NCBI RefSeq assembly: GCF_055900595.2
Contig: NZ_CM148325.1
Strand: one strand, 5' to 3'
DNA length: 64,000 bases
The translations under genes and the position numbers were made by a program. This document shows positions 3,386-51,828 of the stretch, piece after piece. Position 1 is the stretch's first letter. Each line of letters opens with the position of its first letter. The notes beneath the pieces were generated by a model. The model saw only the letters and a list, made by a program, of their open reading frames with translations, did not search any database and was not told the DNA's origin.

Positions 3386-4714
3386 CTGAGAGATCCCCTC
3401 ATAATTTCCCCAAAACGTAACCATGTGTGAATAGATTTTGAGTAAGCAGGGTTGCAGCCACGAGTGAGTCTTCCCTTGTTATTGTGTAGCCAGAATGCCG
3501 CAAAACTTCCATGCCTAAGCGAACTGTTGAGAGTACGTTTCGATTTCTGACTGTGTTAGCCTGGAAGTGCTTGTCCCAACCTTGTTTCTGAGCATGAACG
3601 CCCGCAAGCCAACATGTTAGTTGAAGCATCAGGGCGATTAGCAGCATGATATCAAAACGCTCTGAGCTGCTCGTTCGGCTATGGCGTAGGCCTAGTCCGT
3701 AGGCAGGACTTTTCAAGTCTCGGAAGGTTTCTTCAATCTGCATTCGCTTCGAATAGATATTAACAAGTTGTTTGGGTGTTCGAATTTCAACAGGTAAGTT
3801 AGTTGCTAGAATCCATGGCTCCTTTGCCGACGCTGAGTAGATTTTAGGTGACGGGTGGTGACAATGAGTCCGTGTCGAGCGCTGATTTTTTCGGCCTTTA
3901 GAGCGAGATTTATACAATAGAATTTGGCATGAGATTGGATTGCTTTTAGTCAGCCTCTTATAGCCTAAAGTCTTTGAGTGACTAGATGACATATCATGTA
4001 AGTTGCTGATAGGTTTCCAGTTTTCCGCTCCTAGGTCTGCATATTGTACTTTTCCTCTTACTCGACTTAACCAGTACCAACCCAGCTTCTCAACGGATTT
4101 ATACCATGGCACTTTAAAGCCAGCATCACTGACAATGAGCGGTGTGGTGTTACTCGGTAGAATGCTCGCAAGGTCGGCTAGAAATTGGTCATGAGCTTTC
4201 TTTGAACATTGCTCTGAAAGCGGGAACGCTTTCTCATAAAGAGTAACAGAACGACCGTGTAGTGCGACTGAAGCTCGCAATACCATAAGCCGTTTTTGCT
4301 CACGGATATCAGACCAGTCAACAAGTACAATGGGCATCGTATTGCCCGAACAGATAAAGCTAGCATGCCAACGGTATACAGCGAGTCGCTCTTTGTGGAG
4401 GTGACGATTACCTAACAATCGGTCGATTCGTTTGATGTTATGTTTTGTTCTCGCTTTGGTTGGCAGGTTACGGCCAAGTTCGGTAAGAGTGAGAGTTTTA
4501 CAGTCAAGTAAGGCGTGGCAAGCCAACGTTAAGCTGTTGAGTCGTTTTAAGTGTAATTCGGGGCAGAATTGGTAAAGAGAGTCGTGTAAAATATCGAGTT
4601 CGCACATTTTGTTGTCTGATTATTGATTTTTGGCGAAACCATTTGATCATATGACAAGATGTGTATCCACCTTAACTTAATGATTTTTACCAAAATCATT
4701 AGGGGATTCATCAG
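3386..4714 (-). mobile_element. Insertion sequence IS10 (IS4 family), complete 1,329-bp element
   Basis: Termini CTGAGAGATCCCCTCATAATTTCCCC (3386->) and CTGATGAATCCCCTAATGATTTTGG (reverse complement at 4714<-) form the IS10 inverted repeats; internal 402-aa transposase; length 1329 bp; flanked by 9-bp direct repeats. Confidence 0.95.
3399..4607 (-). CDS. IS10 transposase
   Basis: 402-aa ORF MCELDILHDSLYQFCPELHLKRLNSLTLACHALLDCKTLTLTELGRNLPTKARTKHNIKRIDRLLGNRHLHKERLAVYRWH... matches the IS10/Tn10 transposase as I recall it. Confidence 0.95.
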   Translation of the reverse strand: MCELDILHDSLYQFCPELHLKRLNSLTLACHALLDCKTLTLTELGRNLPTKARTKHNIKRIDRLLGNRHLHKERLAVYRWHASFICSGNTMPIVLVDWSDIREQKRLMVLRASVALHGRSVTLYEKAFPLSEQCSKKAHDQFLADLASILPSNTTPLIVSDAGFKVPWYKSVEKLGWYWLSRVRGKVQYADLGAENWKPISNLHDMSSSHSKTLGYKRLTKSNPISCQILLYKSRSKGRKNQRSTRTHCHHPSPKIYSASAKEPWILATNLPVEIRTPKQLVNIYSKRMQIEETFRDLKSPAYGLGLRHSRTSSSERFDIMLLIALMLQLTCWLAGVHAQKQGWDKHFQANTVRNRNVLSTVRLGMEVLRHSGYTITREDSLVAATLLTQNLFTHGYVLGKL

Positions 4715-35509: not shown

Positions 35510-35701
35510 TTAAAGACCTGCCGGGATTTCGTTATTATCCTGGTGAATAACTTTATCGACAGGGTAACAGTTACCGGGAATTTTCTGTTCGGTTGCTGCA
35601 GTCACACACTCCTGCATTGTCCTGTGAACACTGACTGCAATATCAACTGGTTCTCCGGAAACAAGAAAAACTGTCAGAACAAGTGCAAATGCTGTATTCA
35701 T
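35510..35701 (-). CDS. ydfD: Small lysis-associated membrane protein YdfD
   Basis: 63-aa ORF MNTAFALVLTVFLVSGEPVDIAVSVHRTMQECVTAATEQKIPGNCYPVDKVIHQDNNEIPAGL; overlaps dicB stop by 4 nt. Confidence 0.8.
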   Translation of the reverse strand: MNTAFALVLTVFLVSGEPVDIAVSVHRTMQECVTAATEQKIPGNCYPVDKVIHQDNNEIPAGL

Positions 35702-35886
35702 TGCCAGCATCCTTTTTGTATCGGACGTAAACGGGCCAGCATTGAAAGAATGCATACTTTATTTAATAGCTCCCGTTCTTGTTTTCTCTTGTTAATGGCA
35801 TCTTCAGTAAATACTGGGTTACTGATAGTGACACCAATTTCAAAACAACCTTCAGACGTATTAACGTTTGGTAATAACGTTTTCAT
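35698..35886 (-). CDS. dicB: Cell division inhibitor DicB (MinC activator; functional analogue of lambda Kil)
   Basis: 62-aa ORF MKTLLPNVNTSEGCFEIGVTISNPVFTEDAINKRKQERELLNKVCILSMLARLRPIQKGCWQ. Confidence 0.85.
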   Translation of the reverse strand: MKTLLPNVNTSEGCFEIGVTISNPVFTEDAINKRKQERELLNKVCILSMLARLRPIQKGCWQ

Positions 35887-36060: not shown

Positions 36061-36113
36061 CGGCGGCAGAGCAGTCACGGAGTAAAACTGATACCGCTAA
36101 ACGTCACCAGAAA
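36061..36113 (-). ncRNA. dicF: DicF small regulatory RNA (ftsZ-targeting sRNA)
   Basis: Reverse complement TTTCTGGTGACGTTTAGCGGTATCAGTTTTACTCCGTGACTGCTCTGCCGCCG followed by T-run; near-identical to the 53-nt DicF sequence as I recall it; located just upstream of dicB. Confidence 0.75.
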
Positions 36114-41008: not shown

Positions 41009-41257
41009 TTATCGCCCAGCAGATTTAGCAAGAATAGTCTCGAGCATTTCTGGTACGTTGCCTTTAGCATTGATAGTTGCTGTTCGGTAAGCTAGTTGAT
41101 TTTTTGAGAGATTGATTCCTGTAAGTGCTTCAATTTCGTTGCAGGCCTTACCCCATTCTACCCAGTTTTCAGACAAAAAAGATTCAAGATGATCCGCAAA
41201 TATAGCAATATCATTAGTAACTGTTGCAGCTGGAATATAGACTATGCGAAAAGCCAT
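41009..41257 (-). CDS. Hypothetical protein (convergent with KTSC gene)
   Basis: 82-aa ORF MAFRIVYIPAATVTNDIAIFADHLESFLSENWVEWGKACNEIEALTGINL...; no recognisable motif. Confidence 0.4.
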   Translation of the reverse strand: MAFRIVYIPAATVTNDIAIFADHLESFLSENWVEWGKACNEIEALTGINLSKNQLAYRTATINAKGNVPEMLETILAKSAGR

Positions 41258-41579: not shown

Positions 41580-41669
41580 GTGCTGGTTCTCAAATGTGCG
41601 CTAGCTATTGCGGCTGTAATGGCAATTTATTGTCTTGCTGTTGTTCTTACGGATCGCCTTTCTGATTGA
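41580..41669 (+). CDS. Candidate small hydrophobic peptide (29 aa), possible small membrane toxin
   Basis: Perfect SD AGGAGG (41569-41574), 5-nt spacer, GTG start; translation (M)LVLKCALAIAAVMAIYCLAVVLTDRLSD = single predicted TM helix with charged tail. Confidence 0.35.
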   Translation: MLVLKCALAIAAVMAIYCLAVVLTDRLSD

Positions 41670-41823
41670 TTTTATATTGGCGAGGTGACGTGAGTTAAGT
41701 AGAATTGCTGCGGGTGCTTGAGGCTATCTGCCTCAGGCATGAACACCAACGGCAGATAGAGAAAAGCCCCAGTTAACATTACGCGTCCTGCAAGACGCTT
41801 AACATTAATCTGAGGCCAATTTC

Positions 41824-42036
41824 ATGCTAGACACATGTAGGTTAGCCTCTTACGTGCCGGAAGGCAAGGAGAAGCAGGCTATGAAGCAGCAAAAGGCGAT
41901 GTTAATCGCCCTGATCGTCATCTGTTTAACCGTCATAGTGACGGCACTGGTAACGAGGAAAGACCTCTGCGAGGTACGAATCCGAACCGGCCAGACGGAG
42001 GTCGCTGTCTTCACAGCTTACGAACCTGAGGAGTAA
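41824..42036 (+). CDS. mokD: Mok-like leader frame (N-terminally extended hok reading frame)
   Basis: ATG at 41824, MLDTCRLASYVPEGKEKQA-MKQQK...; same frame as hok, as in annotated mok/hok pairs. Confidence 0.5.
   Translation: MLDTCRLASYVPEGKEKQAMKQQKAMLIALIVICLTVIVTALVTRKDLCEVRIRTGQTEVAVFTAYEPEE
41881..42036 (+). CDS. hokD: Hok-family type I toxin (HokD/RelF-like)
   Basis: 51-aa ORF MKQQKAMLIALIVICLTVIVTALVTRKDLCEVRIRTGQTEVAVFTAYEPEE. Confidence 0.9.
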   Translation: MKQQKAMLIALIVICLTVIVTALVTRKDLCEVRIRTGQTEVAVFTAYEPEE

Positions 42037-42104
42037 GAGACTAAGCGGGGGAGAAATCCCTCGCCACCTCTGATGAGTCAGGCATCCTCAATGCACCCGC
42101 GCTT

Positions 42105-42126
42105 AACCCGCTTCGGCGGGTTTTTC
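42105..42126 (+). terminator. Rho-independent terminator after hok
   Basis: CCCGC-ttcg-GCGGG stem-loop followed by TTTTT. Confidence 0.7.
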
Positions 42127-42202
42127 TAGCATCTACCTGGTTGACAAAGTCGATGTTAAATGGAAATATGGTTGACACCAAAACAACAAGGATATTACGG
42201 TC

Positions 42203-42817
42203 ATGCAGAATTTATCTCAACAGTTGTTAGAAGCATATGACAAGGAGTGCCGCAAAGAGCTTTCGATCGCGTTAGCACAGGCTTATCTTCATTCGCATAT
42301 GAAGGCAAAAGAGTTTGGTTCTTTTTGGGCTCAAGCACAGTCATATTTGCGCTGGTTTTATGCCGATGCATTGCTTGAGAATGCGGCTAAGCGTGTGGGG
42401 CTGGATTTTGAAGTCGGTAGCAATGCTGCTAAAAATTGTAAACACATTGCGATTCACTCGAACAACTGGAAAATGACGGCACATCATTTATCGGGTAATG
42501 CGCCACTTCCTAAGCAGGCATTGTATAGAGCTGTTTACGCTAATCAAAATTATGAATTGAATTTTGGGGATGAAAATGCCGACTCCCTGGATGGGAGAGC
42601 GTCTGGTGGACATGTTTATATGTTACATGATGGCAGTAATCAGCACTTGTCCAAACTGAATTTAACTGTTCCTTCTTCGGATAATTACGGGATTCTTTAT
42701 ACTGAGTCTTTACCAATTATGACGATGGTAGAAGTTGAAGCAGAAAATGTGGATTCTGAGATTGAAGATAAAATCAAGATTCTTACCGAACAAATAATTA
42801 AATCACAGCAATCATGA
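42203..42817 (+). CDS. Uncharacterised protein, upstream partner of the HTH-peptidase gene (candidate toxin/effector)
   Basis: 204-aa ORF MQNLSQQLLEAYDKECRKELSIALAQAYLHSHMKAKEFGSFW...; RBS AAGGA; stop overlaps the next gene's start (ATGA); no motif recognised; AT-rich. Confidence 0.7.
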   Translation: MQNLSQQLLEAYDKECRKELSIALAQAYLHSHMKAKEFGSFWAQAQSYLRWFYADALLENAAKRVGLDFEVGSNAAKNCKHIAIHSNNWKMTAHHLSGNAPLPKQALYRAVYANQNYELNFGDENADSLDGRASGGHVYMLHDGSNQHLSKLNLTVPSSDNYGILYTESLPIMTMVEVEAENVDSEIEDKIKILTEQIIKSQQS

Positions 42818-43959
42818 GCATGAATATCGCACAAACACCATTTACTGATAAATCGTTTAATCCTCGTCGCCTTGAGGAGGCAAGAGAGGCAAAAGGGTTG
42901 ACGATGGCTGAACTTGCCAGAGTGCTCAATATTTCAAGACAAGCTATTTCGTCATTTGAGAAGGGGTTGAAGTCTCCCTCTGCTGATACACTTTCTGCAA
43001 TAGCCAAGGTGTTAGGATTTCCAGAACGATTTTTCTTAGCCTCCAGTGCTTCTCCATCTCTGGAGGGGGCGATTCATTTTAGAAGTCGTTCAACTGCGAC
43101 CAAAAAGGCTCGAGTTACAGGGAAAACACGTGGGCGTTGGGCGGCATTAATATTGGATGAATGTCTAAAATATGCTCAATTACCAGATGTGGTTCTGCCT
43201 GAATTCGATATTATTGATTTTGAGGTTCTGTCTCTATCTGATATTGAGGATATGTCCACCCAATTAAGGCGTTTTTGGGGGTTAGGTGATGGTCCAATAC
43301 TCAATTTAACTAGACTTGTTGAAAATAAAGGAATCGTGGTTTCTCATTTACCTTCTGGTGAGAAAGTTGATGCCTTTTCGTTCTGGCATAATGGGCGGCC
43401 TTTAATTATGTTAGATAGCTCGAAGACGGCTGTTCGCATGCGATTTAGTCTTGCTCATGAACTTGGCCATTTAATTATGCATAGGGCAGTGGAGGATGAC
43501 TACCTGAATGATAAAGAATTATTCGACCTGGTGGAGTTGCAGGCCGATTATTTTGCCTCCAGCTTTTTAATGCCAGCCACCACTTTCGGGCGTGAATTTT
43601 ATAGTCCAAATTTATCAGCGTTAGAACGATTAAAACTACGTTGGATTACATCTATCGGTAGTATTGCCATGAGGAGTCATAGCCTTAAGTTAATCAGCGA
43701 TAATCAGAAAAGCTATATATTTAAGCAATTAGCGCCATTCCATCGTAGGGAGCCGTTAGATGATGCAATCCCAAAAGAAGAGCCTGAGTTACTTAATAAG
43801 TTACTTTTACTTCTTGATAAGCATTCAATCATAAAGGTAACTGAGTTAACTGATATCTTTGCTCTTCCCTTAAATGAGTTATCTGCAATTACACGATTTA
43901 AAGAATCAGATATGATTCATTCTGACAATGTTATTTCATTTACCATAAAACAAAAATAA
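42814..43959 (+). CDS. XRE-family HTH fused to ImmA/IrrE-type zinc metallopeptidase
   Basis: 381-aa ORF; N-terminal HTH (...LTMAELARVLNISRQAISSFEKGLKSPSADTLSAIAKVLGF...) and HExxH motif in ...RFSLAHELGHLIMH...; translationally coupled to upstream gene. Confidence 0.8.
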   Translation: MSMNIAQTPFTDKSFNPRRLEEAREAKGLTMAELARVLNISRQAISSFEKGLKSPSADTLSAIAKVLGFPERFFLASSASPSLEGAIHFRSRSTATKKARVTGKTRGRWAALILDECLKYAQLPDVVLPEFDIIDFEVLSLSDIEDMSTQLRRFWGLGDGPILNLTRLVENKGIVVSHLPSGEKVDAFSFWHNGRPLIMLDSSKTAVRMRFSLAHELGHLIMHRAVEDDYLNDKELFDLVELQADYFASSFLMPATTFGREFYSPNLSALERLKLRWITSIGSIAMRSHSLKLISDNQKSYIFKQLAPFHRREPLDDAIPKEEPELLNKLLLLLDKHSIIKVTELTDIFALPLNELSAITRFKESDMIHSDNVISFTIKQK

Positions 43960-51053: not shown

Positions 51054-51416
51054 ATTAATATTAAATCGGATTATTTTTAGCGCTGAATGTGAAATTTAAA
51101 TAAAAAGGACTCTTCCATGAGTCAAAATCCTTGAAATCTTAAGGGTAAGATAAAAGGTCATTAGACAGAATGACACGTTTTATTAATAAATAAAGCTATT
51201 GTTTCATTCGTGTGTTTTTCTTTACAAAAGTAATCCTTGCTATGGTTGGTTAATCATGCGTTAATGGTGTTCTGGTTTGTTACAAAATTATCTGAAGCAG
51301 TCATTGTTATAATTTTATTATTTGTACCTCTTGAGATTTCCTTGTTGGTTTTTCTCTCTGATATTTTTTTTCGGACCATTCTGCCCAAGGGCTAACTTCT
51401 TCAAAAGGTAATAATG

Positions 51417-51629
51417 ATGTCTAACAAAATGACTGGTTTAGTGAAATGGTTTAACCCTGAAAAAGGTTTTGGTTTCATCACGCCGAAAGATGGTAGCAAA
51501 GATGTGTTTGTCCATTTCTCAGCTATTCAGAGCAACGATTTCAAAACGTTAACTGAGAATCAGGAAGTCGAATTTGGTATTGAGAACGGACCTAAAGGCC
51601 CCGCGGCTGTTCATGTTGTGGCACTTTGA
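51417..51629 (+). CDS. cspI: Cold-shock protein (CspA family; CspI-like)
   Basis: 70-aa [73 protein letters not shown]; preceded by ~360-bp untranslated AT-rich leader. Confidence 0.85.
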
Positions 51630-51828
51630 GGTAGATAATATTACAAACCATATTCACTTTAGATGCCCGTGTTGCCATGGTTCTCAGTATAGAACATCAT
51701 CTTTTGATGTTTCTGACAGGAATCCTTTCGGGGCAAAATGTATCTTTTGTAAATCAATGATGATTACATTTGATAATATTTCACAATACTTAAATGTTAG
51801 CCGTCTATCGTTAGATTTAAGAAAGTGA
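51613..51828 (+). CDS. Candidate small zinc-ribbon-like protein (CPCC...CxxC)
   Basis: [51 protein letters not shown]...; overlaps csp 3' end; weak RBS; followed by terminator. Confidence 0.25.

Follow-up and report, generated by a model that had tools for sequence, protein, structure and literature searches.

A probable complete hok/mok/sok toxin–antitoxin cassette of the hokD/hokW subgroup in a Qin-like prophage of Escherichia coli

A gene for a HokD-type toxin lies, with no relBE next to it, in the 64,000-nucleotide stretch of Escherichia coli DNA that we analyzed (the window), raising the question of whether the toxin gene stands by itself or belongs to a complete hok/mok/sok cassette with the regulation known from plasmid R1. 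The original prediction was of a hok/mok type I toxin locus with the characteristic fold-back elements and a terminator, and this was borne out in that every item it listed was found in the sequence. According to our analysis, positions 41677–42125 of the plus strand very probably represent a complete hok/mok/sok type I toxin–antitoxin cassette of the hokD/hokW subgroup, which is carried by a Qin-like prophage and would operate by an R1-type mechanism. We regard both the identity of the locus and its mechanism as highly likely, and the locus is real and probably functional. It is also an already known one: RefSeq/PGAP calls the 99.8%-identical DNA in E. coli Ch1 and in many other strains hokD, the family is a textbook case of antisense-RNA control, and a 94.5%-identical prophage copy has been tested.

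The coding part of the locus comprises two overlapping reading frames on the plus strand. The hok toxin gene (41881–42036, 51 codons plus stop) is preceded by its Shine-Dalgarno sequence AAGGAG at 41866–41871, and the HokD-like 51-residue product that had been anticipated proved to be 100% identical to HokD of K-12, matching HokW at 47 of 51 positions. The mok frame (41824–42036, 70 aa), identified in the list of open reading frames, starts at the ATG at 41824 and, as foreseen, is in frame with hok and ends at the same stop codon, whereas mok of R1 occupies a frame other than that of hok. The 70-aa frame matched the Pfam Hok/Gef family PF01848 (E=3e-23, 81.6 bits against a cut-off of 22) as well as PHROG 251, ‘MokW-like host killing’ (E=7.7e-33). 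Its ATG is invariant in our alignment of 68 related loci, which were chosen for an identical toxin so that the apparent conservation is inflated. Within the hok frame, a UACG motif is present at 42018–42021 of the plus strand, at the codon for Tyr47, in a codon context that is invariant over the 68 loci. In a local fold, the motif is placed just 3′ of a small hairpin and outside its loop. A 2025 survey of Hok proteins describes A-to-I recoding by TadA of the hokC, hokD and hokE mRNAs, similar to that of hokB, changing Tyr to Cys.

The remaining elements of the cassette were sought in the RNA, all of those described here being on the plus strand. A promoter scan placed the hok promoter at 41677–41705 (-35 box TTGGCG at 41677–41682, 17-nt spacer, -10 box TAGAAT at 41700–41705), the -10 box being almost invariant among the related loci. 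Transcription is predicted to start at G41712, and the Rfam model RF01794 begins at 41712, too. When the whole window was scanned, this model matched positions 41712–41886 with 115.8 bits (E=1.2e-25, gathering score 59), and the match was full-length, covering model positions 1–157. Together with the folds, the leader match delimits a predicted full-length hok mRNA of ~414–415 nt (41712–42125). In line with the structured hok mRNA assumed in the original prediction, this transcript folds with its 5′ and 3′ ends paired, at a minimum free energy (MFE) of -167.6 kcal/mol (z=-6.7), and none of 100 shuffled sequences folds as well.

The 5′ end of the transcript consists of the putative translational activator element tac (GGGUGCUUGAGG, 41712–41723), which was located by folding and for which three alternative partners are predicted, namely the fold-back inhibitory element fbi, the upstream complementary box ucb and a partner in a 5′ metastable hairpin. 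In the fold of the nascent transcript, the first 49 nt form this metastable hairpin (-19.8 kcal/mol, z -3.6), tac being predicted to pair with GCCUCAGGCAU at 41730–41740. A fold of the first 64 nt predicts instead a stem between tac and ucb (AAGCCCC, 41764–41770; also placed by the full-length MFE and constrained folds), which is built around an inner hairpin at 41724–41759. The latter corresponds to the inverted repeat of the original prediction, which is present, although its left arm begins about 9 nt upstream of the ‘about 41733’ that had been claimed. The left arm (CTATCTGCC / CUAUCUGCC) covers 41724–41732 and the right arm (GGCAGATAG / GGCAGAUAG) covers 41751–41759, and the fold thus assigns the repeat to the inside of the 5′ tac stem. 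One pair of this hairpin is changed from A-U to G-C in 6 of the 68 loci, a compensatory replacement, and the same pair carries a C-to-U wobble in 28 loci.

Further downstream, folding of 41770–41850 yielded the sokT target hairpin (41812–41849), which comprises the mok Shine-Dalgarno sequence GAGG (41812–41815, 8 nt upstream of the ATG at 41824), the mok AUG and the dcb element GCCUC (41845–41849); its counterpart in the RF01794 model is the penultimate helix. At the 3′ end, the full-length MFE and pair counts define fbi as CCUCAAUGCACCC (42086–42098). In both the MFE and the centroid structure, tac and fbi (41712–41723 with 42086–42098) are joined by 12 bp with a single bulge; over the 68 loci, this helix is 99.6% paired and mostly invariant, its sole changes being G-U wobbles. 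The transcript ends in a predicted intrinsic terminator hairpin, AACCCGC-UUCG-GCGGGUU followed by a U run (42105–42125), which agrees with the CCCGC/GCGGG terminator that had been proposed and is kept in the related loci and in K-12 hokD; a simple terminator scan did not flag positions 42105–42125.

All three pairing states of the R1 model are therefore predicted for this RNA: a closed form, in which ucb covers the mok Shine-Dalgarno sequence (in the full-length MFE, 41766–41768 pair with 41814–41816), an open form combining tac-ucb with mok Shine-Dalgarno-dcb pairing, and the metastable hairpin. The 3′-terminal 40 nt (42086–42125), which hold fbi and the terminator, are the counterpart of the part that is removed in the R1 model. 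Constrained folds indicate that the open form is less favorable by 9.5 kcal/mol as long as fbi is present and by 0.7 kcal/mol once these 40 nt are taken away, and this shift in the modeled energies on fbi removal is what activation by 3′ processing would rely on. The unconstrained MFE structure of the 3′-shortened RNA did not switch to the tac/ucb stem and kept the metastable hairpin by 0.7 kcal/mol, a margin at which the two forms are almost level.

With respect to conservation, the promoter -10 box, tac, ucb, the Shine-Dalgarno sequences, fbi and the coding region are near-invariant in this set of loci selected by toxin identity. When the full-length structure was projected on the alignment, 95.4% of cells were paired, as compared to 32–40% with slid partners, and double changes affected 3 pairs of the leader structure and 7 of the full-length structure. 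These compensatory and wobble changes keep the helices and are consistent with the predicted structure, but they are weak as independent evidence, since the related loci are so similar, and most of their helices invariant, that covariation support is thin.

The original prediction also expected a Sok-like antisense RNA on the minus strand across the mok start. Phage 933W provides a reference, because its record (AF125520) annotates mokW, hokW and sokW. Transferring the coordinates of the annotated 71-nt sokW feature through a gap-free alignment gave a predicted Sok of 71 nt, running from 41832 to 41762 on the minus strand across the mok start, as expected, and identical to sokW at 64 of 71 positions. 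The putative RNA is predicted to fold (-28.7 kcal/mol, z -5.1) into a long hairpin flanked by a single-stranded 5′ tail of ~15–16 nt and a 3′ end rich in U. Six of its seven differences from sokW fall within the 16-nt 5′ tail, which reads GUCUAGCAUGAAAUUGG in the window and GUUCAGCAUGGAUUGAG in sokW. The sequence itself suggests a Sok promoter at 41839–41867 of the minus strand (-35 box TTGCCT at 41867–41862, 17-nt spacer, -10 box TAACCT at 41844–41839), with the predicted start, G41832, seven nucleotides past the -10 box. This promoter stayed below the threshold of the promoter scan, its -10 box TAACCT agreeing with the consensus at 3 of 6 positions; the box is kept in most of the 68 loci. 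For sokW, Takada et al. (PMC8621323) used primers YO-421/422 to change TAGGTTA to CCGGCTC, making a toxic ‘pro-less’ mutant. Both the -10 box replaced in that mutant (TAACCT) and the -35 box are identical in the window. Of note, RF01794 bears the name ‘sok antitoxin’, and its match lies on the sense strand and stops at the hok AUG, which indicates that the model describes the leader of the hok mRNA and not Sok. The name may thus mislead strand assignment, as the strand of the model differs from the Sok strand.

Among characterized systems, the closest relative is hokW-sokW of the Stx2 phage 933W and of the Sakai prophage Sp5, which shares 94.5% DNA identity over 417 nt and shows the same layout of promoter, tac, inner hairpin, ucb, in-frame 70-aa mok and 51-aa hok. 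Both loci are carried by lambdoid prophages. They differ in the last residues of the toxin (TAYEPEE in the window against VDYESEK in HokW), in the AACCCGC...GCGGGTT terminator, which 933W lacks and which the window shares with K-12, and in their place within the phage genome, the 933W locus being near the right end and that of the window between the replication module and the nin/Q region. The published work on hokW-sokW (PMC8621323) established the two genes as a toxin/antitoxin pair, detected sokW on northern blots and found the promoter mutant to be toxic. With Sp5 in single copy, mitomycin C or heat caused sokW to vanish and HokW to appear in a RecA-dependent manner, and deletion of hokW-sokW delayed growth arrest by ~40 min and halved phage release. 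In the same study, a truncated hokW RNA species was merely suspected, and HokW was given as 44% identical to R1 Hok. In the 2025 Hok survey, HokD itself was included as a control known to be toxic.

The comparison extends to more distant members of the family. The elements and alternative pairings of the R1 hok/sok model are summarized in PMC9841398, and tac, fbi, ucb, dcb, sokT, mok, Sok and the metastable hairpin of R1 hok/sok (parB) can all be placed in the window. Whereas R1 is a plasmid, the carrier here is a prophage, for which reason plasmid stabilization is not the obvious role. The hokC/mokC/sokC locus of K-12 (gef) has an in-frame mok sharing the hok stop, as in the window, together with a sokC annotated antisense across the mok start, and its leader aligns with that of the window from tac through ucb. 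In contrast, its Sok hairpin is shorter and different, its 3′ UTR differs, and the locus is adjoined by IS186.

These likenesses suggest how the cassette may work; the steps that follow are the R1 model applied by homology, from which we infer Sok transcription, 3′ processing, mok–hok coupling and the trigger. A constitutive promoter would give rise to a stable hok mRNA of ~414 nt, with tac being sequestered in the 5′ metastable hairpin while the RNA is synthesized. In the finished RNA, tac would pair with fbi and ucb would lie over the mok Shine-Dalgarno sequence, preventing both translation and Sok binding. Slow trimming of ~40 nt from the 3′ end should take off fbi and allow the tac/ucb stem and the sokT hairpin to form. 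In a healthy lysogen, the abundant but unstable 71-nt Sok would then pair with the open hok RNA over the mok start, leading to destruction of the duplex. Should Sok synthesis stop, be it through prophage induction, loss of the element or the shut-off of transcription by an infecting phage, mok would be translated, and translation would continue into hok, yielding the 51-aa membrane peptide, which would depolarize the inner membrane. Prophage stabilization and abortive infection are further proposed roles. The ‘active post-segregational/abortive-infection toxin’ of the original prediction is an inference of this kind, and a working toxin–antitoxin cassette of the hokW type is the statement with the best support.

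Whether a cassette of this kind does anything in the cell is a matter on which the secondary sources disagree, the 2025 Hok survey and Faridani et al. giving different accounts of the firing of intact chromosomal hok loci. We consider it unlikely that the cassette is intact but biologically silent, that is, fully repressed or barely expressed, never releasing toxin in single copy, and persisting as a selfish remnant that hitch-hikes without affecting host or prophage. Such silence would fit the Sok -10 box, which is weak by consensus, and the many E. coli strains that carry 2 to 10 copies at no obvious cost. It would also fit the work of Pedersen & Gerdes in the form in which the 2025 Hok survey relates it, according to which intact hokA, hokB and hokC showed neither post-segregational killing nor activation by rifampicin. 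However, hokW-sokW has the same Sok promoter, and its toxin is made from a single-copy prophage upon mitomycin C or heat treatment, with consequences for growth arrest and phage release when the pair is deleted (PMC8621323). In addition, all regulatory elements are kept across hundreds of loci, and Faridani et al. describe chromosomal loci of the ECOR collection as active. We retain the working cassette as the preferred reading.

A separate issue is what a working cassette would be for, and here the neighborhood of the locus has to be considered. The locus sits in a Qin-like lambdoid prophage beside rspAB, and the prophage part of the window (31300–52800) is 99.8% collinear with that of E. coli Ch1 (NZ_CP127316), which carries an IS2 insertion that the window lacks. 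The prophage also contains dicB (35701–35886, minus strand) and a DicF sRNA at 36061–36112 of the minus strand (64.8 bits). Two further RNA elements were found on the plus strand: an IS10 RNA-OUT antisense RNA at 4600–4669 (97.3 bits) and a cspA-type thermoregulator 5′ UTR at 51259–51675 (112.8 bits), which probably serves as leader for cspI, the cold-shock gene of the prophage. Immediately before the hok promoter, we observed an unannotated, strongly hydrophobic ORF of 29 aa (MLVLKCALAIAAVMAIYCLAVVLTDRLSD, 41580–41669, plus strand) with a GTG start and an AGGAGG Shine-Dalgarno sequence 5 nt upstream of it. It is kept open (28–29 aa) in 20 related loci and is present in 23 of 116 IMG/VR loci; its variation showed no codon-position bias, searches of Pfam and PHROG gave no match, and it may encode a small membrane protein. 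Another ORF (82 aa, 41009–41257, minus strand) is a hypothetical protein in RefSeq, gave no Pfam, PHROG or PADLOC match and was not seen ahead of hok in any of the 116 IMG/VR loci examined.

Downstream of hok, on the plus strand, lies a RosmerTA defence system (42203–43959), consisting of RmrT (204 aa, 42203–42817, E=7.5e-10; PHROG 35814, 3e-146) and RmrA (381 aa, 42814–43959, E=5.5e-102), the latter with an HTH and an M78 peptidase domain. The original prediction had placed the toxin next to a candidate module, and in terms of position this holds, RmrT and RmrA being the next two genes; the association itself turned out to be incidental. Phage Tritos has the same order, hok-RmrT-RmrA-DUF968-Q. 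Among the 66 related loci with enough downstream DNA, though, RmrA was found 3′ of hok in just 2, most others having rem and/or a DUF968 gene, which led us to reject a functional link between hok and RosmerTA, the adjacency being incidental cargo in a variable slot. The slot 3′ of hok in Qin-like prophages thus holds variable cargo, which may be rem, RosmerTA or neither. We accordingly find it distinctly unlikely that the main role of the cassette is abortive-infection defence exerted jointly with RosmerTA as a prophage defence island. Exclusion of phage T4 by R1 hok/sok (Pecota & Wood 1996, to the extent cited in PMC10305079) would be in keeping with such a role, as would the immediate vicinity of RmrT and RmrA and the fact that relBE takes the same slot in K-12. 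On the other hand, the 2025 Hok survey finds hok not to be enriched beside defence systems, and the sole test of a prophage copy, that of hokW-sokW, pointed to aiding the lysis of the phage itself (PMC8621323).

The near-invariance of the cassette is interrupted by a stretch of ~23 nt. Positions 41816–41838 are hypervariable, with a pairwise diversity of 0.34 compared to 0.06–0.12 in the flanking leader and 0.008 in hok, and span the 5′ recognition tail of the predicted Sok, the first mok codons and the interval from the Sok start to its -10 box. In the 68 loci, 14 distinct Sok tails occur, with a median difference of 7 of 17 positions, and the sokT segment (41812–41849) is predicted to form a hairpin of -10 to -15 kcal/mol in 17 of 17 alleles. 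One might ascribe this diversity to diversifying or balancing selection for Sok specificity alleles that do not cross-react, that is, to incompatibility groups of prophage hok/sok loci that recombination shuffles between otherwise identical cassettes, an explanation that we hold to be improbable. Among 16 IMG/VR genomes with at least two copies, the tails differed in 13 and were identical in 3, and orthogonality was unsupported, with identical tails in 7 of 20 within-genome pairs against ~0.11 expected at random, a proportion that duplicated draft contigs may inflate. If true, Sok-tail specificity groups would bear on the coexistence of several hok/sok copies in poly-lysogens. The plain reading is that 41816–41838 is the least constrained stretch of the locus because complementarity between a transcript and its cis-antisense RNA is automatic, which leaves the size of the diversity excess unaccounted for.

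The variable stretch also affects the beginning of the mok frame. Among loci with an identical HokD, mok is an in-frame 70-aa ORF here and in most others. In 15 loci, it is instead an ORF of 19 codons whose end overlaps the hok start in an ATGA, and 2 loci have a 68-aa ORF that lies in a different frame. This difference in frame between alleles argues that the sequence of the Mok peptide is irrelevant. It is very improbable, then, that the functional toxin is the 70-aa Mok-Hok fusion from the ATG at 41824 instead of the 51-aa Hok: although translation from 41824 must yield an N-terminally extended Hok given the common frame and stop, and although mokC/hokC and mokW/hokW have in-frame mok as well, the extension is encoded by hypervariable sequence, it is dispensable in view of the loci in which the toxin is identical and mok takes one of the other two forms, and hok has its own Shine-Dalgarno sequence.

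It remains to relate the complete cassette to the gene from which the name hokD derives. In K-12, hokD (relF) belongs to the relBEF operon of the cryptic prophage Qin and encodes an identical toxin, and from the coding region through the 3′ UTR, with fbi and the terminator, it hardly differs from the window. The prophage family and the integration site beside rspAB are likewise the same. The similarity begins at ~41866, about 15 nt before the hok ATG and inside the Sok -35 box and hok Shine-Dalgarno sequence; upstream of this point, relB and relE replace the hok promoter, tac, ucb, the mok start, sokT, Sok and the Sok promoter. In K-12 hokD, fbi and the terminator are therefore left as orphans, without tac, ucb, mok, sokT and Sok. 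The relBEF-type arrangement, in which a leaderless hokD stands third with relB-relE directly upstream, differs from what was found in the window, where RelB, RelE, Rem, YdfV and FlxA gave no match anywhere in the 64 kb, so that the statement ‘without relBE’ proved correct. As the prophage of the window is collinear with a Qin-like prophage next to rspAB, which is also the site of K-12 Qin, the locus corresponds in position to K-12 hokD and represents its complete form.

The two forms differ in prevalence. The full-length locus was counted in ~3,791 of 5,426 complete E. coli genomes, a number that refers to genomes with at least 80% of positions 41650–42180 and includes paralogues above ~80% identity; in 1,644 complete genomes, the upstream flank is shared, too. 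The relE-hokD junction, in comparison, occurs in 1,165 complete E. coli genomes. The picture in IMG/VR is similar: the full leader is present in 69 of the 80 loci that encode an identical HokD, with 4 loci being fused to relE and 7 differing in other ways. The complete locus is thus the commoner of the two, the K-12 relBE-hokD arrangement being a truncated and unrepresentative form, and the lack of relBE in the window is no anomaly. Conclusions on ‘hokD’ that derive from K-12 should, for this reason, not be carried over to the complete prophage copies of most E. coli.
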